Assembly: GCA_039091855.1 (NCBI GenBank) | Contig: JAWCLA010000025.1 | Span: 1-11,155 of the forward strand | Direction: 5' to 3' | Source of the DNA: Candidatus Aenigmatarchaeota archaeon | GTDB taxonomy: Archaea > Aenigmatarchaeota > Aenigmatarchaeia > QMZP01 | DNA: 11,155 nt | Part shown: positions 1 to 11,155 of the stretch, in pieces | Numbering within the stretch: the first letter of the stretch is position 1 | Layout: every line of letters starts with the position of its first letter | Notes under the pieces: model-generated | The model's input: the letters and a program-made list of their open reading frames with translations, nothing else | What the model was told of the DNA's origin: nothing | Database searches by the model: none | Made by a program: the position numbers and the translations under genes

Positions 1-179
1 ATCTGGTATCCAAGATGGCTTATTGTCAATATTATGTCAGTTATGCCATAGTTCTTCAAGTATGATATTATGTGTTCCAGAATTGGCCTTTCCTTGAATG
101 GCAGGAGAGGCTTTGGCACAATATGGGTAAAAGGCCTTAACCTCGTTCCCTTCCCTCCAGCAAGAATGACGGCTTTCAT
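1..179 (-). CDS. Sugar-phosphate nucleotidyltransferase (NTP_transferase family), N-terminal part; runs off the window start
   Basis: Manual translation from the ATG at 179 (minus): MKAVILAGGKGTRLRPFTHIVPKPLLPFKERPILEHIISYLKNYGITDIILTISHLGYQ. It contains the LAGGxGTRLxPxTxxxPKPLLP signature. Not in the supplied ORF track. Confidence 0.93.
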   Translation of the reverse strand, partial: MKAVILAGGKGTRLRPFTHIVPKPLLPFKERPILEHIISYLKNYGITDIILTISHLGYQ

Positions 180-200
180 ATATTAATATCTTCCGAATGT

Positions 201-216
201 ATTAAAAAGTTTTTTT
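201..216 (-). promoter_or_regulatory. Putative BRE/TATA promoter of the nucleotidyltransferase (probably leaderless)
   Basis: Minus strand reads an A-run, then C-TTTTTAAT; the TATA-like box is 22-29 nt upstream of the ATG at 179. Confidence 0.5.
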
Positions 217-353
217 GGAACGGCTCACCAAATTAACAACTCTTGATAAATCAATGTAAAGAAAGAGTCAAGTTCCAAGAGATGTTACGTATAATAGCGA
301 AGATCGAAATATAATGCAGCAATTTATGAAGTGATTTCATAATATTCAGGTCA

Positions 354-1091
354 TTACTTGTCATAACTTGAAAAAATAACGGCATCTAAAACACAAGGAA
401 AAATATCAGACTCAGAACACCACTTTTGGATACCGTCCATAATCAATTCATAATAATTTTCATCAGATAATCCAGATGCAGATAATCTAAAAGGAAACCC
501 GTTTTTGTTTAACCATTTTATAATTCTGCTATCAATAGGAATTTCATATCTTGTTAGACCCAGGTCCTGCCAAAGGTTTCTTGATTGTTTAGGTCCAATG
601 CCTTTGAGCCTTTGGACTAATAAACAAGCTTTTCTTTCAATTTTGATTTTTTCTAAATTCGGGTTTTTTCTCGCTTCAACCAATTCATCATAAATTTCAT
701 TAACATTTTTCCAAAAACCATTTTCTAACAAACTAAAATTGTATTTAATTTCTTCACTGATTCTATTAGTTCTTCTTATTCCTCCAAATTTAGTTAAAAT
801 CTTAAAGGCATCTTTTTGCAGGTTTTCAGATTTTTTGCAAAAGTCATAATTCAAAGGAAACGGATTGAAAGTTAAGAATTTAAAAATTTTACTATTAGGT
901 CCTGATCTTTGTCGCGTTGTCAGAAGGCAGGAAATAATTTGTTTCCAAAATTCTTCTTTTGAAAAAAGAGGTGGATTATCTAATAAATTTCTTTTTATCC
1001 TTATTTTTACAAAATTATTTTCTTTGTGTATATTAACAAAACCCGTAAGCAATTTTATATCTTCATCTGTTATTATCCATTTAAATTTCAT
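354..1091 (-). CDS. HhH DNA glycosylase/AP-lyase-like protein, Ogg2 (8-oxoguanine glycosylase)-like, 245 aa
   Basis: HhH motif LKGIGPKQSRN with Lys at the catalytic position, followed by IPIDSRI (catalytic Asp); N-terminal EEFWKQIISCLLT and C-terminal VLDAVIF follow the archaeal Ogg2 pattern. Start placed at ATG 1091 (MKFKW) rather than the TTG at 1136. Confidence 0.65.
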   Translation of the reverse strand: MKFKWIITDEDIKLLTGFVNIHKENNFVKIRIKRNLLDNPPLFSKEEFWKQIISCLLTTRQRSGPNSKIFKFLTFNPFPLNYDFCKKSENLQKDAFKILTKFGGIRRTNRISEEIKYNFSLLENGFWKNVNEIYDELVEARKNPNLEKIKIERKACLLVQRLKGIGPKQSRNLWQDLGLTRYEIPIDSRIIKWLNKNGFPFRLSASGLSDENYYELIMDGIQKWCSESDIFPCVLDAVIFSSYDK

Positions 1092-1163
1092 ATTAAAAGA
1101 ATATTGTGAACTAACTTTATTAATTTGACCAAACAAAATGTTCGCTTAATAAAAAGCGAGTTT

Positions 1164-1301
1164 TCATTCCCCTGAAACAGCCCTTTTTCTTGCGCCCCAA
1201 AAGACAATGCTGCCGAGAAAAAATATTATCAACAGTGAAAGCCCGTAAAAAGCCGGCGGATTTGCTATCAGCATACCTATTAGGTCGGTTTCCCCTGCCA
1301 T
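1164..1301 (-). CDS. Small single-pass membrane protein, 45 aa
   Basis: Manual translation MAGETDLIGMLIANPPAFYGLSLLIIFFLGSIVFWGARKRAVSGE*. One hydrophobic helix followed by RKR; fills the gap between two same-strand genes. Confidence 0.6.
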   Translation of the reverse strand: MAGETDLIGMLIANPPAFYGLSLLIIFFLGSIVFWGARKRAVSGE

Positions 1302-1339
1302 AATGATCAATTAATAAATATTGGAAACAGAATTAAAAA

Positions 1340-2887
1340 CTAACGCTCAAGAATGAAATACTTCCTGTTCTTCTCAATCTCTGGAATCTCTGCCAGCATC
1401 ATCTCGGAGGTTTTGCCTATTCCCATCACGGTCAGGTCATTCTCCGACATTTGATCAAGCGTGCGCTCGAGCTTGTATCCCTTTTCAGCGAAAATCTCGA
1501 AAATCGTTTCGCCCTTCTTGACGCTGTCGCCTGTTTTTTTGTGGAGGAGTATCCCTGCTCCCTTGTCCTTCGGTGCGCCAGCCTCCCTGGCTATCTGGAC
1601 GATGGCTGTGTTGTTTATCCACAACACCTTTCCGGAAACCTTTGACTTTATCTGTAGCGATTCTTTTCCTATTGGTATATCCTCTGGTCTGATTTTCGGG
1701 TCACCGCCCTGCTCCCCTATTATTTGCCTGAACTTCCTCTCTGCCTTTCCTGACCTTATGATATCCATTGCTTTCTTATATCCATTCCTGATTCCTGCAA
1801 ACTTGAAGAGGACTGCACAGAGGTCGCAGACCTTGTCAAGCTGGTCCTGAGGAATCCTGTGTCCCGAAAGAATGTGGAGCGCTTCCCTCGCCTCAAGCGC
1901 TGGTCCTATTCCAAACCCTATCGGCTGCTCTCCAAACGTTGAAACGCACTCTACCCTTATGCCAAGTTTTTTCCCGAGTTCTATAAAGTTATTGCCCATT
2001 TCCTTCGCTTCATTTATCGTTCTTATCTTCACACCCTTCCCTGTCGGTATGTCAACCACAAGGTATTTTGAGCCTATTGCCTTCTTTTTTGACATCACCG
2101 AAGGCAGGAGAAGCGGGTCTATTGAAAGTGGATGCTCTATTTCTATGAATATGTCATCGGCAGGCGCCAGGTCAAGTGCACCTCCCCATACCAAGCAACC
2201 ATTGGTTTTCCTTACAACCCTTTTTATGTCATCGACAGAAAGGCTTACCGGGCATATGCATTCCATCTTGTCAGCTGTCCCGGCAGGAGCGGTTATTGCT
2301 CGCGAAGAGGTTTTTGCTATCGTAAGCCCTGCCGCAGCAACAGTTGGCACGAGAATCATAGACGTCTTGTCGCCGGGAACGCCACCAATGCTGTGCTTGT
2401 CATAAAGTGTTTTGTTTGTAAGCTTGAGCTTTTTTCCTGTTTCCACCATTGCCATAGAAAGAGCCGCTGCCTCTTCCATTGACATTGTCCTGTGATAGAG
2501 ACTTATTACAAACGATGTTATCTCTATTTCTGAAAGCTTGTGGTCAACAACATCATTAACTATCTGCCTTATTTCCATTGGCTTAAGGACTTTTCCTTCA
2601 AGCCTGCTTTTTATGTATGCCAGAGATTCTGGTGGTTCAGCAGGCTCGACCCTTATTTTTGTGCCTTTCTTTACGCACAAACCTTCCTCAACGCAGCCGT
2701 AAAGCCCTATCTCTCCAGGCTTCACAAAACTTTCTGTTATGTTCACTATGCCTATTTCTTTTTTGCCGTTGCAGGAGAGTTCAACCCTGTCCAATGCCCT
2801 GATGTCAAGCTCTTCTGCATCCTCCCTGTTTAGAATCACGATGGGTTTTTTCGCTTCCACGTATAACGGTTTTGCCTTGAGAAACAT
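1340..2887 (-). CDS. deoA: AMP phosphorylase (archaeal NMP phosphorylase, thymidine phosphorylase family)
   Basis: 515 aa with the extra N-terminal domain typical of archaeal AMP phosphorylases and motifs DKHSIGGVPGDKT, KTSSRAITAPAGTAD, WGGALDLAPADD, SVMSKK, QPIGFGIGPALEARE, AGAPKDKGAGI. Confidence 0.95.
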   Translation of the reverse strand: MFLKAKPLYVEAKKPIVILNREDAEELDIRALDRVELSCNGKKEIGIVNITESFVKPGEIGLYGCVEEGLCVKKGTKIRVEPAEPPESLAYIKSRLEGKVLKPMEIRQIVNDVVDHKLSEIEITSFVISLYHRTMSMEEAAALSMAMVETGKKLKLTNKTLYDKHSIGGVPGDKTSMILVPTVAAAGLTIAKTSSRAITAPAGTADKMECICPVSLSVDDIKRVVRKTNGCLVWGGALDLAPADDIFIEIEHPLSIDPLLLPSVMSKKKAIGSKYLVVDIPTGKGVKIRTINEAKEMGNNFIELGKKLGIRVECVSTFGEQPIGFGIGPALEAREALHILSGHRIPQDQLDKVCDLCAVLFKFAGIRNGYKKAMDIIRSGKAERKFRQIIGEQGGDPKIRPEDIPIGKESLQIKSKVSGKVLWINNTAIVQIAREAGAPKDKGAGILLHKKTGDSVKKGETIFEIFAEKGYKLERTLDQMSENDLTVMGIGKTSEMMLAEIPEIEKNRKYFILER

Positions 2888-3074
2888 TTTCCTTCCTCTT
2901 TTGCCATATTAATTAATTTGTATATATTATATCCTTGTCCGTATTTAAGCCAATATAAATAACCCACCATTTACAGGTCATTTATTCCAAAAACAAGAAA
3001 AAATCTGCGATAGCTTTAAAAGCTTATTCCGTATGCGCTTAAAAATTTTTGCATTTATAGTAAAAGTAGGTACC

Positions 3075-5231
3075 ATGAAAGGGAAATTCTTTGTGATTGG
3101 GCTTCTGCTTGTTTTGGGAAGCATTATCACGGCTGATGATGTTGTTGGGCAGGTCTGGGCGCAGAGCTTCGAGCTTGAAATTATTCCTTCCTCTGTTTCA
3201 ACCTGCACCTGCAGCTCACTGACTCCGCAGAATGTCCAGATATCAGTCAAGAACCTTTACCAGTATGCAGACACATTCTCATTTACAGTTGAGGCTCCAC
3301 CAGGCTTCACGTCCACGATCCAGAGCAACGTTATGGTTAACCCTGGCGAAAAAAGGAATCTTGATTTGTTTCTTGTGAACATTGGTTGCAATGTTCAGCC
3401 AGGACCTTATAAGCTAAAGATAAAGGCAAAATCGGGCACAACAGGAGAAACAATAACAAAAACAGTTGACATTGATGTAATGAATTGCTATGAGGTTCAG
3501 CTTGAGATAGAGAGCAAGTTCAGGGAGCTTTGCAGGGAGGAAAACAAGTCCGTGATTTTTGACATGATTATAAAAAACAAGGGCAAGTACACCGACACCT
3601 ATGAACTAACTGCATCAGTTCCTTGGGCTCTTTTTTCAGACAACAGCTTTACAATAGAGGCTGGAAAGTCAAAGAGTGTAGGGCTTGCTCTTGTGCCGCC
3701 TGAGACAGCAACAGGATTGCAGAATGTTAATGTTGTAGTTAAATCGCAGAAATTCTACTCAACGGACAGCGAAACGGTGCAGATTGACATAAAGGATTGC
3801 TATCAGATGTCTGCGGACCTTCAGCCAAGTGAGGCAAAGATATGCCTTGGGGAAACAGTTACGCAAAAATTGACAATAACCAACACGGGCTTGAGGGAAG
3901 ACAACTTTTCCATCTCTGTTCCAAACTGGGTAACTTTGGACAGGCAGTCTGTCTCAATAAGCCCAAAGAAAACAGGTGATGTGAAACTTACCTTTACACC
4001 CAGCCAGAAAGGAAGGACACAATTCATTATTAATGTCACTTCTTCAAATGACCCGAAAATCTTAAAAACAATCTCATCGGTTGTTGACGCGGAGGAGTGC
4101 AGGGGAGTTGCTGTTATAGTGTCTCCTTCAAAGTCAACAGTATGCCAAGGCGTGAAGTCTGATTTTCTTGTTTCTGTTAAGAACCTCGGAAAGATACAGG
4201 ACAGCTTCAACCTCACTTCAAACATAGGCGTTTTGGAAGTTAACAAGGTTGTCCTTGGTCCGGGGGAAACTGAGGAATTGAAGCTTGAGGTTTCAAACAT
4301 AACTGTACCGGGAACTTACAAGATAAGGGTAAGGGCAGAATCGGGTGATGTTTCTGACGAGGGAACGGCCGAGTTCATTGTGGAAAACTGTTATTCAGCC
4401 TCAGTTGACATTTCACCTCAAAATCACTCAACCTGCGCAGGTTCTCCTGTCAGCTACACTGTTGCAGTGAAGAACACGGGAAAGCTTGCAGAGGAGTTTA
4501 TGGTTTCAGTTGAAAGCGATTTAGGTAACGAAACAAGGTCCGTAAAACTTCAACCGGGAGAGGCAAAGACAGAGAATTTTGTTGTTTCAGTTCCCCTTCT
4601 CGCTGAAGGAAGGGAGCATTCAATAAAAGCGTCGGCGAAATCTGTCCATACCTCTGCAGAGATAATGACAACGCTTCTTGTCAAGTCTGCACCGCAATGC
4701 CATTCAGTTCAGGTATGCACGGTTGAGGATAAGCTTGTCGCTCTCTGCAACGCGACAGCAATACCTGTTATTATAAAGAATACGGGAGAGAAGAGTGACA
4801 AGTACAACATAAGCGTTGAGGCACCTTCCTGGGTTTACCTGAGCCCTGATTATGCAGAGCTTGCTCCCGGCAAGCAACAGATAGTTTATCTCTACCTTTC
4901 ACCCTGCATAGGAGTTGAAAAGGGCGTTTACGAGCTTAAGCTTAATGTAATCTCGCCTAACACAAGGACACAGTATGAAGTTGGGGTTGGTGTGGTTCCG
5001 GAGATAACAGGCACCCCACCTGAAGAAAAAATTGTGTGCAAAGGTCCTCCTGCCCCGCCTGCAATCACAGAGAATGTAACAGCAGGAAATGTAACACAGC
5101 CAGTAACAGGAAACGTAACAGGGCTCATACTTGGAATTGACACAAACACCTGGAAGATAATAGCAATAGTTATAATAACCCTGGTAATAATAATAATTCT
5201 CGCAATAAGGTTCATACTGCTGGCGAAATAG
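3075..5231 (+). CDS. Secreted, C-terminally membrane-anchored surface protein with about six Ig-like (NEW3/CARDB/COG1470-like) repeats
   Basis: From ATG 3075: signal-peptide-like MKGKFFVIGLLLVLGSII..., ~100-aa modules with xNxGxxxD/E-F/Y motifs, a Pro/Thr-rich linker with NVT sequons, and a C-terminal hydrophobic helix with basic residues. The ORF-track start at 3033 is less likely. Confidence 0.8.
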   Translation: MKGKFFVIGLLLVLGSIITADDVVGQVWAQSFELEIIPSSVSTCTCSSLTPQNVQISVKNLYQYADTFSFTVEAPPGFTSTIQSNVMVNPGEKRNLDLFLVNIGCNVQPGPYKLKIKAKSGTTGETITKTVDIDVMNCYEVQLEIESKFRELCREENKSVIFDMIIKNKGKYTDTYELTASVPWALFSDNSFTIEAGKSKSVGLALVPPETATGLQNVNVVVKSQKFYSTDSETVQIDIKDCYQMSADLQPSEAKICLGETVTQKLTITNTGLREDNFSISVPNWVTLDRQSVSISPKKTGDVKLTFTPSQKGRTQFIINVTSSNDPKILKTISSVVDAEECRGVAVIVSPSKSTVCQGVKSDFLVSVKNLGKIQDSFNLTSNIGVLEVNKVVLGPGETEELKLEVSNITVPGTYKIRVRAESGDVSDEGTAEFIVENCYSASVDISPQNHSTCAGSPVSYTVAVKNTGKLAEEFMVSVESDLGNETRSVKLQPGEAKTENFVVSVPLLAEGREHSIKASAKSVHTSAEIMTTLLVKSAPQCHSVQVCTVEDKLVALCNATAIPVIIKNTGEKSDKYNISVEAPSWVYLSPDYAELAPGKQQIVYLYLSPCIGVEKGVYELKLNVISPNTRTQYEVGVGVVPEITGTPPEEKIVCKGPPAPPAITENVTAGNVTQPVTGNVTGLILGIDTNTWKIIAIVIITLVIIIILAIRFILLAK

Positions 5232-5235
5232 CAAA

Positions 5236-5414
5236 TTACGGCTTTTCGAGCTGCCGCTTCCAAATCTCGAAAGACGGCCTTGTATGGTTTGTCCAAGCCG
5301 TCAATCCCAATTCGGCCGTATAGCAAAAACCTGAGAAAAATTTTTACGGCTTTTCGAGCTGCCGCTTCCAAATCTCGAAAGACGGCCTTGTATGGTTTGT
5401 CCAAGCCGTCAATC
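5236..5414. repeat. Perfect 71-bp direct repeat (5236-5306 and 5344-5414), each copy with two stem-loops
   Basis: TTACGGCTTTTCGAGCTGCCGCTTCCAAATCTCGAAAGACGGCCTTGTATGGTTTGTCCAAGCCGTCAATC occurs twice, separated by 37 bp, between convergent genes. Confidence 0.95.
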
Positions 5415-5543
5415 TAACTTTGGCCTGAATATGCCGCCGGCGCATTTTTGAGCATCCATATCAGCAGGTATGTTGTGCCACAGGCACCTGCCGACTTTTT
5501 TTGTTACAGGAACGAAAAACCTGCATTCAGAACACTTAGGCAT
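5409..5543 (-). CDS. 44-aa Cys-rich mini-protein, putative Fe-S/metal binding (HpdC/BssC-like Cys pattern)
   Basis: Manual translation MPKCSECRFFVPVTKKVGRCLWHNIPADMDAQKCAGGIFRPKLD*. The ATG overlaps the upstream stop (ATGCCTAA) and is preceded by AAGGAGGAAGGAT (strong SD-like sequence). Confidence 0.75.
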   Translation of the reverse strand: MPKCSECRFFVPVTKKVGRCLWHNIPADMDAQKCAGGIFRPKLD

Positions 5544-6177
5544 ATCCTTCCTCCTTCCTGTATTCAAAATATGAGTAAACAGTCGTGAATATGAAAATTA
5601 ATATCAAAACGAACAGCAACAGGATAAAAAAATCCTGCGAAACGAAAAATCCGAGCAGGAAAACTATAGAGTATGCCTCAAGCAGCCTGCCTCCAAGGCG
5701 GTTGGTTTTTTCCCAAACCTTGTCGCTGCTGAGCGTCCAGGGTGTTCTTATCCCAATGAACCAGTTCCTCTTGGATTTCGTGCAAAGGAATCCAACATAA
5801 AACAAAAGCGAAGAAACGCAGGGTATTATGGCTTTTGCTGTATCAATTCCCAATCCTAGATTTGATGCAGCGACAATAAGATAAATGTAAAGCATAAAAC
5901 CTGCAGACAAAACAACCATCCCGTCATAATAAATTATGAATTTTTTTATGTTCTTCCTGAGCGGGTCGATTTTTGGTATAACAAGCAAAAGCCCGTAAAT
6001 TCCCAATGCAAGGCTCAGGAAAAACGCGGAAAAAAACTCTTTGCTCATAAAGCCATCAGGCTTTCCCTGAAAGTTCCAGTGAGTAACAATTATTTCAGGA
6101 AGCAGGAAGTAAAGCCAGGCAACTGCAAATGCCAACAATAGAAAAATCCCGAGTGAGAGATATTGGAGTTTTCTCAT
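5536..6177 (-). CDS. SdpI/YhfL family membrane protein with N-terminal DUF1648, 213 aa
   Basis: Motifs LPEIIVTHWNFQGKPDGFMSK and RNWFIGIRTPWTLSSDKVWEKTNRLGG; several TM helices. Start at ATG 6177 avoids overlap with the divergent carbamate kinase. Confidence 0.9.
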   Translation of the reverse strand: MRKLQYLSLGIFLLLAFAVAWLYFLLPEIIVTHWNFQGKPDGFMSKEFFSAFFLSLALGIYGLLLVIPKIDPLRKNIKKFIIYYDGMVVLSAGFMLYIYLIVAASNLGLGIDTAKAIIPCVSSLLFYVGFLCTKSKRNWFIGIRTPWTLSSDKVWEKTNRLGGRLLEAYSIVFLLGFFVSQDFFILLLFVLILIFIFTTVYSYFEYRKEEGYA

Positions 6178-6208
6178 ATTATTTAGTTTGTTTGTAAAAA
6201 TATATAAT
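6178..6208. promoter_or_regulatory. Compact divergent promoter region (31 bp)
   Basis: TTATATAT on the minus strand (6200-6207) lies 23-30 nt before ATG 6177; a weaker TTATTTAG on the plus strand (6179-6186) lies 23-30 nt before ATG 6209. Confidence 0.5.
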
Positions 6209-7111
6209 ATGAAATCCCGAAAAAACCTTGTGGTCATAGCCTTGGGTGGGAACAGCCTTCTTAGAGCAAGAGAGAAGTTTTCCATTCACAATGAGATCGA
6301 GCATGTCAGGAATGCCTGCCTTATGATAAGCAGGATTTCCAAAATGGGTCACAGGATCGTAATCACGCACGGAAACGGCCCGCAGGTTGGAGAGATTCTT
6401 TTGAGACAAAAACAATCAAAAAACCTCCCCCCGCTGCCGCTTGATGTCTGCGTTGCCCAGACGCAGGGAGAGATAGGATACATAATCCAGAGGGAGCTAA
6501 TGCCTCTTGTAAAAAAGCCTGTTGTAACAATCCTAACACAGGTGGTTGTGAATAGGAAAGACCCTGCATTCAAAAACCCAACAAAATTCATAGGCCCGTT
6601 TTTCCAAAAAAAGCAGCCTGGAATGAAAAGGGATTCCAACAGGGGATACAGGAAGGTAGTCCCTTCTCCTGAACCACTTGAGATTGTGGAGACAGGGGAA
6701 ATTCGCAGGCTGATTGATGAGGATTTCATAGTAATAGCCTGTGGAGGCGGGGGAATACCTGTTTTCAGGACAAAAACGGGATTTGAAGGTGTAGAGGCAG
6801 TGATAGACAAGGATTTGGCTTCGGAAAGGCTTGCCACTTCCCTGCAAGCTGAAACGCTTCTCATCCTTACAGATGTCCCTTTCGTTTACAGGGATTATGG
6901 GACAAAAAGCCAGGAACCTCTCCGCAAACTCTCTATTTCAGATGCACTATCGCTTTATAATTCCGGCCAGTTCCCTCCCGGAAGTATGGGTCCAAAAATG
7001 CTGGCATCTATAAGGTTCATAAAAAATGGCGGTTCAAGGTCCATAATAACATCGCCTGAAAAGGCGGTTGATGCGCTGAAAGGAAAGACGGGGACGGAGA
7101 TAGTTTATTAG
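6209..7111 (+). CDS. arcC: Carbamate kinase
   Basis: Motifs VIALGGNSLL, ITHGNGPQVG, AQTQGEIGY, DPAFKNPTKFIGPF, RKVVPSPEP, GGGGIPV, GVEAVIDKD, FPPGSMGPK. Start at ATG 6209. Confidence 0.96.
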   Translation: MKSRKNLVVIALGGNSLLRAREKFSIHNEIEHVRNACLMISRISKMGHRIVITHGNGPQVGEILLRQKQSKNLPPLPLDVCVAQTQGEIGYIIQRELMPLVKKPVVTILTQVVVNRKDPAFKNPTKFIGPFFQKKQPGMKRDSNRGYRKVVPSPEPLEIVETGEIRRLIDEDFIVIACGGGGIPVFRTKTGFEGVEAVIDKDLASERLATSLQAETLLILTDVPFVYRDYGTKSQEPLRKLSISDALSLYNSGQFPPGSMGPKMLASIRFIKNGGSRSIITSPEKAVDALKGKTGTEIVY

Positions 7112-7118
7112 TCGTGTA

Positions 7119-7125
7119 TTTATAA
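7119..7125 (+). promoter_or_regulatory. Putative TATA box for tspO
   Basis: TTTATAA 23-29 nt upstream of ATG 7148; no SD visible before the ATG. Confidence 0.5.
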
Positions 7126-7147
7126 GTCAGCAAAAAATATCTAAAAG

Positions 7148-7615
7148 ATGAAAAACTACCAGAAGCTCATAATCTCAGTTTTGATACCCTTATCAGTTGG
7201 TTTTTTGGGATCTTTCTTTACTTCCAGCTCTGTCGAAAGCTGGTACTTGACGCTGAACAAGCCAGAATTCAACCCGCCTAACTGGCTGTTTGCGCCTGTG
7301 TGGACTTTTCTTTTCATACTTATGGGGGTTTCATTTTACCTTGTGTGGAAAATTGATTTTGGAGGCAAGAGAAATTCCCTGATTGGGATTTATTCCTTTC
7401 AGCTTTCACTCAATTTGCTGTGGTCCCTTCTTTTTTTCGGCATAAGAAACCCGTTTTTTGCCCTTGTAGAAATAATCTTTTTGTGGTTCGCAATTATGAT
7501 GAACGTTTTAGTTTTTTACAAGGCATCAAAAAATTCAGGGCTTTTATTGATACCATATCTGATGTGGGTAAGCTTCGCCTCTGTTCTTAATTATTTTGTA
7601 GTTATTCTTAACTAA
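7148..7615 (+). CDS. tspO: TspO/MBR tryptophan-rich sensory protein
   Basis: Motifs WYLTLNKPEFNPPNWLFAPVWT, QLSLNLLWSLLFFG, LLIPYLMWVSFASVLNY. Confidence 0.95.
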   Translation: MKNYQKLIISVLIPLSVGFLGSFFTSSSVESWYLTLNKPEFNPPNWLFAPVWTFLFILMGVSFYLVWKIDFGGKRNSLIGIYSFQLSLNLLWSLLFFGIRNPFFALVEIIFLWFAIMMNVLVFYKASKNSGLLLIPYLMWVSFASVLNYFVVILN

Positions 7616-7625
7616 GGGGATAAAA

Positions 7626-8069
7626 TTGCGCCTTTGGTCAATTCATCCCAAATATTTGGACAGGGCAGGTCTTTTGGCTGTGTGGAGGGAAGGTTTGCTT
7701 GCCAAGAAAGTCATCCAAAACAAAACAAAAGGTTACAAAAAGCATCCACAATTGGTTCGGTTCAAAAAGTGCAAAGACCCCGTTTTTGCGATAGAATGCT
7801 ATCTTTTTGAGATATACAAGGAGGCTGAAAGAAGGGGCTACAATTTTGACATTAAAAAAATAAATCGTCCTGAAGAAAGCTGCAAACCAAAGGGGCTGAT
7901 AAGCGTAACCTCAGGGCAGGCTGAGTTCGAATTCAGGCACTTACTGAAGAAGCTAAAAACGAGGGACAAGCCAATATTCGATAAAATAAAAAACACCAAG
8001 GAAATAGAATTGAATCCGATTTTCATAAAAATTCCAGGAAAAAAGGAAAGTTGGGAAAAGGGTTCGTAA
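7626..8069 (+). CDS. Pyrimidine dimer DNA glycosylase / T4 endonuclease V family protein
   Basis: N-terminus MRLWSIHPKYLDRAGLLAVWREGLLA, then GYKKHPQLVRF, EAERRGYNFD and VTSGQAEFEFRHL. TTG start preceded by GGGGA, 10 bp after the tspO stop. Confidence 0.88.
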   Translation: MRLWSIHPKYLDRAGLLAVWREGLLAKKVIQNKTKGYKKHPQLVRFKKCKDPVFAIECYLFEIYKEAERRGYNFDIKKINRPEESCKPKGLISVTSGQAEFEFRHLLKKLKTRDKPIFDKIKNTKEIELNPIFIKIPGKKESWEKGS

Positions 8070-8108
8070 TAATTTTTCACTCGCAAAAAATCAATATCAA
8101 AAATATGA

Positions 8109-8151
8109 AAAGGAGCCCTTATCCACGAACATCGCGATAAGCGGCTCCTTT
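8109..8151. terminator. Stem-loop downstream of the tspO/glycosylase pair; possible terminator or 3' stabilising hairpin
   Basis: AAAGGAGCC(8109-8117)+CTTATC(8118-8123) pair with GATAAG(8136-8141)+GGCTCCTTT(8143-8151), with one bulged C; followed by a pyrimidine tract. Confidence 0.5.
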
Positions 8152-8229
8152 CCTCTCCCCTCTCCCCTTAGCGGTACTAATTTATATGTATGAGGATATT
8201 TAAATACTTTTCTGTCCCAAAATTATTAC

Positions 8230-8271
8230 AGAAACCTTTATTTCCTATGGAGAAAGGTTTATTTCCAATGG
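8230..8271. promoter_or_regulatory. Tandem 21-bp imperfect repeat with internal dyads, putative operator upstream of trkH
   Basis: AGAAACCTTTATTTCCTATGG / AGAAAGGTTTATTTCCAATGG, 18 of 21 identical. Confidence 0.4.
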
Positions 8272-8308
8272 AATTTTTTTGATTGCAAAATCCGCACTGC
8301 TTATTGAT

Positions 8309-8315
8309 TTTTATA
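8309..8315 (+). promoter_or_regulatory. Putative TATA box for trkH
   Basis: TTTTATA 23-29 nt upstream of ATG 8338. Confidence 0.45.
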
Positions 8316-8337
8316 CCCCAAACCTCAATAAAATAGT

Positions 8338-9732
8338 ATGGAATTCCGCTCAATTCTTTCCTATTTGGGAACAGTGCTGGAAATAAACGGAATATTGGCA
8401 ATATTGCCAGTTTTCGTTTCTTGGATATATAACGAGAGCACTCACACGCTGTTTTTTGTTACCGCTGTGATATCCTTCATATCAGGAATAGCTATTGACA
8501 GGAAGTTCAGGAAGAAGGAACTTGGCATAAGCTCTGCAATGGTTCTGGCGAGCGTGAGCCTGATAACAGTTTCGCTTGTCGGTGCAATACCATTTCTCTG
8601 GAATCTAAGTCCATTGGACGCTGTTTTTGAGAGCGTCTCCGGTTTTACAACAACAGCCTTTACCACCGTAAAGCCTGAAAGCCTGCCTTATTCAATTGTT
8701 TTCTGGAGGTCGCTTATGCAATGGGCAGGTGGGTTGGGGACAGTGATTATTTTTATTCATCTTGCAATTTCTCCCGGAATTTCCTCTTATTATGGAAGGA
8801 AGCCCGAAATTGATGAGGCAAGAAAAAAACTACTGCCAAAAAAGGCAGCCTTCATTTATGTTGGCATAACTTTTGTCGGTTTTGTTCTGCTTTTGCTGAC
8901 AGGAATTGGTGCTTTTGATTCTGCCGTGACAAGCATGTCTTCTGTTTCAACAGGAGGGTTTTCAGCAAAAAATGACTCCATAGGTGCTTACAACAACATA
9001 TGGGTTGAGGCAGTGGCGATTTTCCTTATGATAGCAGGTGCCACATCCTTACTGCTTATTGAGGGTTTCACTAGGGGAAGGGTTTTTGAATACCTCAAAA
9101 GCGCTGAAACAAGGCTTTTCTGGGTTTTGATATTCATTTTCACTATATTCCTTTCCTTCTCAATGGTTGCGCAGGAGCCTGTTAGAGCTGCTCTGTTCAC
9201 TACGATTTCAGCAATCACAACAACAGGCTTCTCAACACATTCCACATACTCAGGCCTTTCCATGCTACTGATTATAGTTTTGATGATAATAGGAGGCTAT
9301 GGGGCATCAACAGCAGGAGGGATTAAGCTTTGCAGAACAGGAATAATTGGAAAATCATTCCCCTGGATAGGCAAGAAAATCACGCTTCCGCAGGAGGCTG
9401 TCGTTCCTCTGAAATATGACGAAAGGGTGATAAGGGATTCTGAAGTCACGACCATTGCCATTTTCGTTTCAATATACGTTCTCTTCCTTTTCGGGACAGC
9501 AGTACTACTTAGCTTTATGGGATATCCGCCGCTCGAATCGATTTTTCAGGCAGCATCGGCGCAGGGAAACGTTGGGCTTTCCGCAATTCCCATTGAAAGC
9601 ATAAACCCGCTTGGAAAGGTAGTATTGATGTGCAGCATGGTCATAGGCAGGCTCGAGATATTCCCTGTGCTGGGGTTTCTATACATTCTTGTTAAAACAA
9701 GGATTGGAAGAAAGGAAATAATTAGTGGGTAA
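8338..9732 (+). CDS. trkH: TrkH family potassium uptake membrane subunit
   Basis: Four pore-loop motifs (FESVSGFTTTAF, SVSTGGFS, AITTTGFS, SAQGNVGLS) plus FWRSLMQWAGGLG, STAGGIK and MVIGRLEIFP. Confidence 0.94.
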   Translation: MEFRSILSYLGTVLEINGILAILPVFVSWIYNESTHTLFFVTAVISFISGIAIDRKFRKKELGISSAMVLASVSLITVSLVGAIPFLWNLSPLDAVFESVSGFTTTAFTTVKPESLPYSIVFWRSLMQWAGGLGTVIIFIHLAISPGISSYYGRKPEIDEARKKLLPKKAAFIYVGITFVGFVLLLLTGIGAFDSAVTSMSSVSTGGFSAKNDSIGAYNNIWVEAVAIFLMIAGATSLLLIEGFTRGRVFEYLKSAETRLFWVLIFIFTIFLSFSMVAQEPVRAALFTTISAITTTGFSTHSTYSGLSMLLIIVLMIIGGYGASTAGGIKLCRTGIIGKSFPWIGKKITLPQEAVVPLKYDERVIRDSEVTTIAIFVSIYVLFLFGTAVLLSFMGYPPLESIFQAASAQGNVGLSAIPIESINPLGKVVLMCSMVIGRLEIFPVLGFLYILVKTRIGRKEIISG

Positions 9733-9917
9733 AATCTTGGTTACTCTGCAATCTTTAGCCAGAAGATAGTTGGTAGTGTCAATATTACATATGCGTCATC
9801 CATCGAAACAGTGGAATTTCCGCCTCTATACAACTTACTTTATTTTTCTGTAAAAATCCAGGTGGATATATAAATACATAGATGTTATTTTACATATTTG
9901 AAATGGAGGTGGGCAAT

Positions 9918-10205
9918 ATGATGTCCGAAATACCGAAAAGCCTTTCAAAGGTGAGGCAGGAAGAGCTAAACAAGGAGATACTCAGGGTTGGAATGATAGC
10001 TGAGCTTGACGCAGTTAATCTCTATGAGCAGTTGGCTGCAATGACGACAAACGCTGACATAAGGAAGGTCCTTATGGACATAGCGAAAGAGGAGAAGACC
10101 CACATAGCAGAGTTTGAGACAATGCTCTTGAGGATGGACAAGGAACAGGTTCAGGAACACGAGAATGGAAGGAAGGAGGTTGAGGAGCTGACAGGAAAGA
10201 AATAA
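9918..10205 (+). CDS. Small ferritin-like (rubrerythrin/encapsulated-ferritin Flp-type) protein, ~95 aa
   Basis: IAELDAVNLYEQ and DIAKEEKTHIAEF di-iron ligand pattern. SD GGAGGTG at 9905-9911 supports a start at 9918 or 9921; TATATAAA at 9867-9874. Confidence 0.88.
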   Translation: MMSEIPKSLSKVRQEELNKEILRVGMIAELDAVNLYEQLAAMTTNADIRKVLMDIAKEEKTHIAEFETMLLRMDKEQVQEHENGRKEVEELTGKK

Positions 10206-10390
10206 ATCCTGTCAGTATTATTTTTTGCTTTGTAATGCAATTCAATAATGATTTATCTCACCCACTTACACGCTTCTAAAATTAAGTATATAAAACCAAT
10301 TAATTATTTAATAGACTGACGACTTAATGTCATCCAACAAGTAGTTAGTGATTGCCTTGGTAGTGTAGCGGTCTAGCATATGGGACTGTC

Positions 10391-10574
10391 ATAACCTTTT
10401 CCTCAAGGGAAAAGCTTAACCAAAAGGGGAGGCTGAGGCCTTCCAACATTGGGAATAACCTTTTCCTCAAGGGAAAAGCTTAACCAAAAGGGGAGGCTGA
10501 GGCCTTCCAACATTGGGAATAACCTTTTCCTCAAGGGAAAAGCTTAACCAAAAGGGGAGGCTGAGGCCTTCCAA
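10391..10574 (+). repeat. 64-nt tandem repeat, two full copies plus a 56-nt third copy, inside tRNA intron 1
   Basis: Unit ATAACCTTTTCCTCAAGGGAAAAGCTTAACCAAAAGGGGAGGCTGAGGCCTTCCAACATTGGGA at 10391-10454 and 10455-10518; first 56 nt again at 10519-10574. No mismatches seen. Confidence 0.97.
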
Positions 10575-10599
10575 ATGAAATGAGAAAAAGGTTGTAGAG
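10392..10599 (+). other. tRNA intron 1 at canonical position 37/38, 208 nt
   Basis: BHB motif: TGGGA-CTGT-CA^T-AACCTTTTCCTCA paired with TGAGAAAAAGGTT-GTAG-AG^C-TCCCA. The central helix CTGT/GTAG has two G-U pairs; 12 of 13 pairs form in the intron helix. Confidence 0.88.
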
Positions 10600-10620
10600 C
10601 TCCCATGACCCGGGTTCAAA

Positions 10621-10702
10621 TCCACAAAGGGCTCCCTTTATTAATACAGGCAACTGATGCCCTTTTAGTATGTTCCAAAAATAAATAATGGTGTGGTGAC
10701 CA
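10621..10702 (+). other. tRNA intron 2 at non-canonical T-loop position 59/60, 82 nt
   Basis: Relaxed BHB: CCGGG-TTCA-AA^T-CCAC paired with GTGG-TGAC-CA^T-CCCGG (3 of 4 central pairs). Cutting after the second base of each bulge regenerates CCGGGTTCAAATCCCGG exactly. Confidence 0.85.
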
Positions 10703-10716
10703 TCCCGGCCAAGGCG

Positions 10717-11155
10717 TAGGGTCTCAGGTAAGACTCCCTCATCCATCGATAAATATTCGAAGACAAAAGGTCTACCATGGACCCTTACAACCAAATTTCA
10801 AACAAAATAAACAAGATTAAGGCTGATGATGGGATTACCCCTAAGAACAAGCTTCTCCTTGAGAAGTTCAGGGACTACTGCCTTGCCAACTCTTTATCTG
10901 TTAGGAGGATATTGAAATACCTGCACTACTTATCCGTCCATGCAAAGATTCTTGGGAAGGACTTCGATTCAGCAACAAAAGAGGACATCCAGCTTCTTGT
11001 TGCTGAGATAGAAAAGAAGGAATGGGCAGAATGGACAAAATACGACAACAAGATGATGATCAAGACTTTCTACAAGTGGCTTGAGGGAGATGGGGAGGCC
11101 TTCCCAAAGAAAGTTGCCTGGCTAAAGGCAAAAGTCAAAAGCAACAGGCTGATTG
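10717..11155 (+). mobile_element. Probable left boundary of an integrated element (provirus/plasmid/island) at tRNA-Asp
   Basis: An integrase-like gene starts 60 bp after the tRNA 3' end; the second att copy is not visible in the window. Confidence 0.6.
10777..11155 (+). CDS. Tyrosine recombinase/integrase, N-terminal (core-binding, SAM-like) part; runs off the window end
   Basis: Open frame from ATG 10777: MDPYNQISNKINKIKADDGITPKNKLLLEKFRDYCLANSLSVRRILKYLHYLSVHAKILGKDFDSATKEDIQLLVAEIEKKEWAEWTKYDNKMMIKTFYKWLEGDGEAFPKKVAWLKAKVKSNRLI. The LS..RI.KY / F..ATKEDI..LV..IE / WTK.D.K...K.FYKWL / P..V.W.K pattern is typical of archaeal tRNA-adjacent integrases. Catalytic residues lie outside the window. 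Confidence 0.8.
   Translation, partial: MDPYNQISNKINKIKADDGITPKNKLLLEKFRDYCLANSLSVRRILKYLHYLSVHAKILGKDFDSATKEDIQLLVAEIEKKEWAEWTKYDNKMMIKTFYKWLEGDGEAFPKKVAWLKAKVKSNRLI

Follow-up and report, generated by a model that had tools for sequence, protein, structure and literature searches.

Where does a hot-spring archaeon encode tRNA-Asp when standard scanners find no such gene in its genome? The question is raised by an 11,155-bp stretch of DNA, called here the window, which is the entire contig C18 of an assembly from the Aenigmatarchaeota, a DPANN lineage (689 kb in 38 contigs, 84% complete, 42% G+C). An initial annotation, made from the letters of the window, had claimed that three segments spread over 363 bp join into a clean 73-nt tRNA-Asp(GTC). 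Our analysis makes it very probable that the locus is a functional tRNA-Asp(GUC) gene, the sole one in the assembly, that its two introns are cut by the tRNA splicing endonuclease EndA at bulge-helix-bulge (BHB) motifs, and that the first of these is an old single-module intron whose module was recently triplicated.

All parts of the gene lie on the forward strand. Exon 1 (10354–10391, 38 nt) comprises tRNA positions 1–37, that is, the 5′ strand of the acceptor stem, the D arm, the 5′ strand of the anticodon stem and the anticodon loop to A37. It is followed by intron 1 (10392–10599), which is 208 nt long and occupies the canonical position 37/38, with cuts after 10391 and 10599. Exon 2 (10600–10620, 21 nt, positions 38–59) supplies the 3′ strand of the anticodon stem, the variable region, the 5′ strand of the T stem and the T loop to A59. 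Intron 2 (10621–10702, 82 nt) interrupts the T loop at 59/60, and exon 3 (10703–10716, 14 nt, positions 60–73) consists of T60, the 3′ strands of the T and acceptor stems and the discriminator G73; the terminal CCA is not encoded. When the exons were joined in a script, ARAGORN called the product tRNA-Asp(gtc). The proposed coordinates hold, as does the calculation that introns make up 290 of the 363 nt. As the exons are colinear, on one strand and within 363 nt, the gene is neither split nor permuted.

The 73-nt product folds into a cloverleaf with seven of seven Watson-Crick pairs in the acceptor stem, a 4-bp D stem (two pairs are G-U), a 5-bp anticodon stem and a T stem with five of five pairs. 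GUC lies in a 7-nt anticodon loop (CTGTCAC), and U8, A14, G18G19, U33, the T-loop UUCAAAU and the discriminator G73 are all in place. G73, C38 and G10-U25 are what we take, from work in yeast, to be aspartate identity elements.

The raw locus is invisible to the usual tools, as the initial annotation had anticipated: ARAGORN made no call on it, with or without introns allowed, and the Rfam tRNA covariance model gave no match at gathering or permissive thresholds. A permissive Rfam scan of 10250–10800 returned six matches, all with E ≥ 0.34 and far under gathering scores, which we judged to be chance. Removing intron 1 alone leaves a defective fold with two to three T-stem pairs and a mismatched acceptor stem. 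The first bases of intron 2 (10621–10640, TCCACAAAGGGC) loosely resemble a tRNA 3′ end, and it is on this start that ARAGORN, given the locus with intron 1 alone removed, builds a defective 76-nt tRNA-Asp. Exon 1 occurs once in the assembly, and a search for another tRNA-Asp(GTC) found no second 5′ half across its 689 kb, which represent 84% of the genome.

What would mark the two insertions as introns is the structure at their borders. Archaeal tRNA endonucleases cut after the second base of a bulge, a convention that was consistent across all relatives examined below. We scored each candidate site by its outer helix, its central 4-bp helix and its intron helix, placing the cuts accordingly in the two 3-nt bulges. 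At intron 1, all three helices pair completely (4/4, 4/4 and 4/4; GGGA CTGT CA/T AACC with GGTT GTAG AG/C TCCC, where the slash is the cut); the central helix joins 10386–10389 to 10594–10597 and the intron helix joins 10393–10396 to 10590–10593. At intron 2, the helices have 4/4, 3/4 and 4/4 pairs (CGGG TTCA AA/T CCAC with GTGG TGAC CA/T CCCG), with the central helix between 10615–10618 and 10697–10700 and the intron helix between 10622–10625 and 10693–10696. The best-scoring sites, with 12 of 12 and 11 of 12 pairs, are exactly those that restore the anticodon and T loops, which bears out the initial annotation on this point. Intron 1 thus has the strict hBHBh′ form, in which two 3-nt bulges that contain the cuts are separated by a 4-bp helix (the 3-4-3 rule, as described in PMC3239211). 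In the minimum-free-energy (MFE) fold of the 363-nt precursor (−134.2 kcal/mol, z = −4.3), the acceptor stem is retained; so are the anticodon stem along with the long-range helix of intron 1 and the T stem along with the helix of intron 2.

Are these motifs maintained in other organisms? By searching the DNA of 60 related genomes and aligning the matches with splicing allowed, we resolved tRNA-Asp in 21, and genome G005 added one (n = 22). Ten loci for which spliced alignment was unreliable were left out of the intron tallies (L016, L017, L021, L023, L029, L032, L033, L035, L036 and L037). Four of the 22 genes are uninterrupted (G036, G014, G058 and G005) and score 60–61 bits against the Rfam tRNA model (RF00005, cut-off 29; G036, 60.2; G014, 60.6). 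Over positions 5–73, our spliced product is 91–93% identical to the G036 and G014 genes. The other 18 genes carry one to three introns at 15/16, 21/22, 37/38 or 59/60. Introns lie at 37/38 only in G025, G029, G006 and G035, and also in G009 (L018), where the intron is masked by N; at 59/60 only in G004 (102 nt), G002 (37 nt) and G056; and at 21/22 only in G001. Two introns are found at 37/38 and 59/60 in G055, G040 and probably G031, at 21/22 and 37/38 in G003 and G042, at 21/22 and 59/60 in G037 and G060, and at 15/16 and 59/60 in G021, while G019 has three. Exon 1 is 95–97% identical to that of same-genus relatives, and in each of the four genomes of this genus (G001, G002, G003 and G004) the intron content of tRNA-Asp differs from that of the window.

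The pairing at the splice sites is conserved with compensatory changes while the sequence varies. For introns at 37/38 (11 genes, including the window), 44/44 cells were paired in the outer helix, 42/44 in the central helix and 40/44 in the intron helix, compared to at most 32/44, 26/44 and 27/44 when the 3′ partner was slid as a control. For introns at 59/60 (10 genes, including the window), the values were 40/40, 37/40 and 27/40, compared to at most 28/40, 20/40 and 21/40, so that the outer and central helices lie far above the slid controls. These ten genes contain nine distinct pairs of intron-helix arms. In three of them (G004, G040 and G056) the intron helix is weak or absent, giving a relaxed hBH-like form, which needs an enzyme of broad specificity. 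A 27,985-nt contig (depth 28) from public sequencing run X1 carries exon 1 of tRNA-Asp with four differences and continues after 10394 with other sequence (the match covers window positions 10354–10394); a co-occurring relative therefore carries a different intron at that 37/38 position.

The relatives also bear on how intron 1 reached 208 nt. Most of it is a tandem array on the forward strand (10391–10574) of 2.9 perfect copies of a 64-nt module (TRF, 100% matches, score 368). Each module consists of a first hairpin (AACCTTTTCC-TCAA-GGGAAAAGCTT), a linker (AACCAAAA) and a second hairpin (GGAGGC-TGA-GGCCTTCC). In G025 and G003, introns with a single module (76 and 74 nt) occupy the same 37/38 site, and the triplication in the window is therefore probably recent. 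The unit does not recur elsewhere in the genome. At the junctions between units (10447–10460 and 10511–10524), the sequence CATTGGGA/ATAACC resembles the end of exon 1, CATATGGGA(CTGTC)A/TAACC, minus the anticodon loop, so each unit would carry a decoy of the 5′ strand of the anticodon stem. We found no C/D box pattern and no Rfam family in intron 1.

How unusual is the Asp gene in its own genome? When we scanned the assembly with the Rfam tRNA model, no tRNA reached the cut-off. Counts at E ≤ 1e-4 across 61 genomes were zero here, zero in G048 and G051, 7–12 in the four same-genus genomes and 5–64 elsewhere (G005 had 47 at E ≤ 0.001). The sole intron-less call of ARAGORN, a 93-nt Arg(gcg), falls on a locus that actually has a 124-nt intron at 59/60. 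Thus, no uninterrupted tRNA gene was detectable in the assembly, and every tRNA locus that we resolved is interrupted. By combining BHB splicing with ARAGORN, we identified ten loci with an intron directly after GTTCRAN in the T loop (Arg-tct, Thr-ggt, Ser-like, Gly-ccc, Met, Phe, Asp, Arg-gcg, Leu and Ile/Lys-like), nine of which need a second intron of 42–208 nt. As at least nine loci besides Asp have T-loop introns, eight of them with a second intron too, the Asp gene is typical of its genome; its canonical intron is the longest among the ten. Annotation pipelines would report this organism as lacking tRNA-Asp and nearly all other tRNAs, though the genes exist.

Two further surveys were of limited use. 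A scan of 345,006 pairs of candidate introns gave 11 matches and served solely to confirm Asp; among them were mis-calls, such as "introns" of very great length and a shifted register in which the Asp locus was also read as tRNA-Thr(tgt). A census guided by 40 tRNAs of G005 yielded inconsistent isotypes from boundary refinement and 17 loci without a BHB combination, and it entered no count; in it, Ile, Phe and Trp look as if they had three exons, which is suggestive.

The initial annotation had predicted that the organism possesses an EndA of relaxed specificity, as in Thermoproteales. An enzyme of a type with such specificity is present, namely the ε2 form of DPANN archaea, not the (αβ)2 form of Thermoproteales; it would be expected to act as a homodimer on relaxed BHB motifs. 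The genome encodes two EndA genes. One is a 408-amino acid (aa) open reading frame (ORF) on contig C19 (L002:129-1355) whose residues 16–408 align to residues 18–387 of 4fz2_A (E 1.5e-97), the structure of the ε2 EndA of ARMAN-2 (Hirata et al. 2012, PMC3488258). With two PF01974 stretches and a PF02778 domain, it has the three units on one polypeptide (αN-α-βC, about 390 aa) that define this type. The catalytic Tyr236, His251 and Lys282 are all aligned to identical residues, and Lys161 (K161) of the specificity loop is replaced by Arg, a conservative change (numbering from PMC6379350). The second EndA, a 198-aa α-like ORF on C12, has Ala at the expected position of the catalytic Lys. This paralogue (C12:5287-5883, L001) directly abuts a tRNA-Phe gene with three exons (C12:5140-5286), starting at the next base past its 3′ end. 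Genes for RtcB and for a CCA-adding enzyme (on C33) are also present. The enzyme acting on the tRNA-Asp precursor is most likely the 408-aa EndA.

Records titled Aenigmatarchaeota contain the closest relatives of this protein (54–81% identity), followed by Micrarchaeota (39–43%), and three-unit ε-type EndA is widespread in such records (L038–L082). According to Kaneta et al. 2018 (PMC5829648), ε2 had until then been recorded in ARMAN-1/2 and Mancarchaeum only. Our literature search found no paper describing heavy tRNA disruption or an ε2-type EndA for Aenigmatarchaeota, and PMC12397907 makes no mention of Aenigma or DPANN. The locus extends both features from Micrarchaeota to Aenigmatarchaeota.

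We propose that transcription would yield a precursor of roughly 363 nt or longer, in which the endonuclease would recognize two BHBs. Cleavage after A37 and before C38 would release the 208-nt intron, and cleavage after A59 and before U60 the 82-nt intron. RtcB could then join the exons (38 + 21 + 14 nt), and the CCA enzyme would add the 3′ end.

Several observations weigh against this interpretation. One position of the central helix of intron 2 is a U·C mismatch, and this helix is open in the MFE fold. Sites that resemble a BHB, with 11 or 12 of 12 pairs, are equally common in the reversed genome (76,656, versus 76,861 in the real one). However, when we spliced at such sites and ran ARAGORN, the reversed genome yielded no tRNA call, whereas the real genome gave 18, spread over 15 loci, indicating that the signal is the coincidence of a BHB with a tRNA and not the BHB alone. 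A register shifted by one base also gives intron 1 a motif with 11 of 12 pairs, and ARAGORN calls the product tRNA-Thr(tgt); the 12/12 register is the one common to the relatives. Our choice of the best BHB register among equivalent cut positions slightly favors structure, and contigs built with k = 31 cannot verify the copy number of a 64-nt unit. No public RNA run lists the locus, which is why we infer transcription, cleavage and ligation of the precursor. Finally, a second tRNA-Asp gene is possible in an assembly that is 84% complete.

The last two points would also suit a decayed pseudogene, inactivated by two insertions while a functional tRNA-Asp resides in the unassembled 16% of the genome, as would the loose mimicry of a tRNA 3′ end at the start of intron 2. 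However, the exons are free of defects, the BHBs flanking both insertions have been maintained in relatives through compensatory changes, and the enzymes for splicing are intact. Moreover, every tRNA gene in the genome would then need to be a pseudogene, since none of them reaches the Rfam cut-off. We regard decay as very improbable.

A tRNA gene with several BHB introns in an organism with an ε2-type EndA is of a kind already known. The nearest parallel is ARMAN-2 (Ca. Micrarchaeum acidiphilum), likewise a DPANN archaeon with BHB introns at 37/38 and 59/60: its pre-tRNA-Cys has a 59/60 intron and its pre-tRNA-Pro two T-loop introns (PMC3239211). In vitro, Fujishima et al. (2011, PMC3239211) observed cleavage of a 59/60 intron by its ε2 EndA. 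The three-unit organization on one polypeptide and the catalytic triad are shared. In contrast, the organism studied here belongs to another phylum, none of its tRNA genes was found uninterrupted, its EndA has Arg in place of the loop Lys K161, and a second, α-like EndA is also present.

Other parallels are more distant. The tRNA genes of Thermoproteales are said to have up to three BHB introns at non-canonical sites, to gain and lose them between close relatives and to share related intron sequences among different tRNA genes, all of which recalls our findings, although the enzyme there is reportedly (αβ)2. Multiple-intron genes in that order, along with a proposal of intron transposition, reportedly go back to Sugahara in 2008 and Fujishima in 2010 (refs 1, 2 and 29 of PMC3239211). 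We know of no report from Thermoproteales of perfect tandem amplification inside an intron. The tRNA-Trp intron of Haloferax volcanii, reportedly also structured, longer than 100 nt and located at the canonical 37/38 position, is said to carry a C/D box small RNA; here, in contrast, the cargo consists of repeats of a two-hairpin module whose relatives reside in other tRNA introns. In our view, it is this module array in intron 1 and an attachment (att) core in the last exon that are worth following up.

That core is the 12-nt sequence CGGCCAAGGCGT (10706–10717, forward strand), which is repeated at C29:477-488 of the same assembly; if one mismatch is allowed, the identity begins at 10703, the first base of exon 3. 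Sixty nucleotides downstream of the tRNA begins a tyrosine-recombinase (integrase) gene on the forward strand (10777–11154), of which the N-terminal 126 codons precede the contig end and which has a weak Phage_int_SAM_4 match. The fragment is 39% identical to a 412-aa ORF beside tRNA-Asp in G018, which carries PF00589. Six integrase homologues were found in metagenome contigs, three of them 62–64 nt after an uninterrupted tRNA-Asp(gtc) and one after tRNA-Ser. A search of viral contigs gave one match only (28% identity), and PHROGs gave no match for the integrase fragment or for an 87-aa ORF at the element end. On the reverse strand, an ORF of 87 codons (10531–10794) overlaps the tRNA gene in antisense; it is without a Pfam match and probably spurious.

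Contigs whose sequence matches the window rightward from 10706 have a different left flank in four public runs, which come from two studies. The depth to the right of 10706 was 42.3, compared to 4.3 to the left, in run X1, and 13.9 compared to 4.1 in run X3, contig depth being a rough guide. The alternative left flank was found once in the assembly, at C29:457-476 (L143), where it is followed by CGGCCAAGGCGT and then by a chromosomal gene of the eRF1/Pelota family. Judging from these junction sequences, position 10706–10717 of C18 looks like attL, 477–488 of C29 looks like attR, and the metagenome form looks like joined element ends resembling attP. When the right flank on C29 was compared to the tRNA-Asp loci of relatives for synteny, there was no match. 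An integrase adjoins the tRNA, each junction has a direct repeat of the tRNA 3′ end, and a joined form exists; exon 3 is the docking site of an integrated mobile element. Elements with tyrosine recombinases that target tRNA genes are generally known to combine a downstream integrase with such a repeat, here 12 nt long, and a joined form, and homologous integrases lie beside tRNA-Asp. Unlike in the general case, the targeted tRNA gene has three exons, the third of which (14 nt) coincides with the shared core.

Could intron 2 itself be a scar of integration, composed of a duplicated, degenerate tRNA 3′ end and element remnants, and not spliced by EndA? The att core does start within 3 nt of the border between intron 2 and exon 3, and the start of the intron (TCCACAAAGGGC) is enough like a tRNA 3′ end for a poor ARAGORN tRNA. 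The idea that tRNA-targeted integration is related to tRNA gene disruption is mentioned in PMC3239211. Nevertheless, nine relatives have introns at 59/60 (33–110 nt) with unrelated sequence and the same BHB, an integrase lies beside tRNA-Asp only in G018 among the loci examined, at least nine other tRNA loci of the genome have T-loop introns, and the intron 2 BHB has 11 of 12 pairs. A scar is thus hardly credible, even less so than a pseudogene, and we retain the reading of intron 2 as a spliced intron.

Alternatively, the gene could be real and part of its layout an artefact, with either the 208-nt length of intron 1 (2.9 units) or the join between host and element at exon 3 made by the assembler. 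Perfect 64-nt repeats collapse in short-read graphs, and the array is independently supported solely by a cyclic unitig (94 nt) of the repeat in runs X1 and X2, which confirms adjacent copies, not their number. Also consistent with an artefact, the region to the right of 10706 is 3–10 times deeper than that to the left (X1 and X3) and has another left flank too. Against it, that unitig demonstrates, in both runs, that two or more units are adjacent. Public-run contigs cover 10120–10414 (exon 1 and the start of the intron), the repeat junction and, in X3, 10546–10721; the low-depth X3 contig spans intron 1, exon 2, intron 2 and exon 3 to 10721. The second junction expected of a true integration is present on C29. 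An artefact of either kind therefore seems unlikely to us.

If the array is genuine, where did the module come from? In related genomes, modules akin to this one are found at many sites and share a layout: a hairpin (AAGCTTTTCC-TCAA-GGCAAAAGCTT), an ACCAAAA linker and a variable GC hairpin that ends in GCTTCC (L010, L083, L085, L086, L089, L091, L097, L098 and L100). Of 23 occurrences that we compared with 40 reference tRNAs, ten or more lay inside introns of tRNA-like hosts, namely Ser, Leu, Ile (twice), Gly (twice), Glu, Thr and Val. These introns, of 52–301 nt, occupy canonical and T-loop positions, and the modules are often in tandem. One array directly follows a tRNA-Ser gene; the remaining occurrences have no recognized host. 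RNAalifold predicted no consensus structure for 22 module copies. We then examined hairpin 1 by hand: 85% of its cells were paired and five of its ten pairs had changes on both sides, values that were reached in none of 500 shuffles.

Possibly, then, the two-hairpin module moves among tRNA introns at both 37/38 and 59/60, amplifies in tandem and has been caught here just after a triplication, in a genome with no uninterrupted tRNA gene and with an att core confined to a 14-nt last exon. We offer this tentatively, as a conjecture rather more apt to fail than to hold. If true, the locus would make the spread of archaeal tRNA introns as mobile DNA, and their interplay with tRNA-targeting elements, directly testable. 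With its triplication, an att core limited to the last exon and kindred modules in other tRNA introns, the locus provides material on how introns arise, grow and meet integrating elements. Two more tandem arrays are present in the assembly, at C4:9108-9357 and C13:8923-9105; they have a period of 80, with 3.1 and 2.3 copies, respectively, and contain a GC hairpin (GGAAGTTCC-GAA-GGAACTTC).

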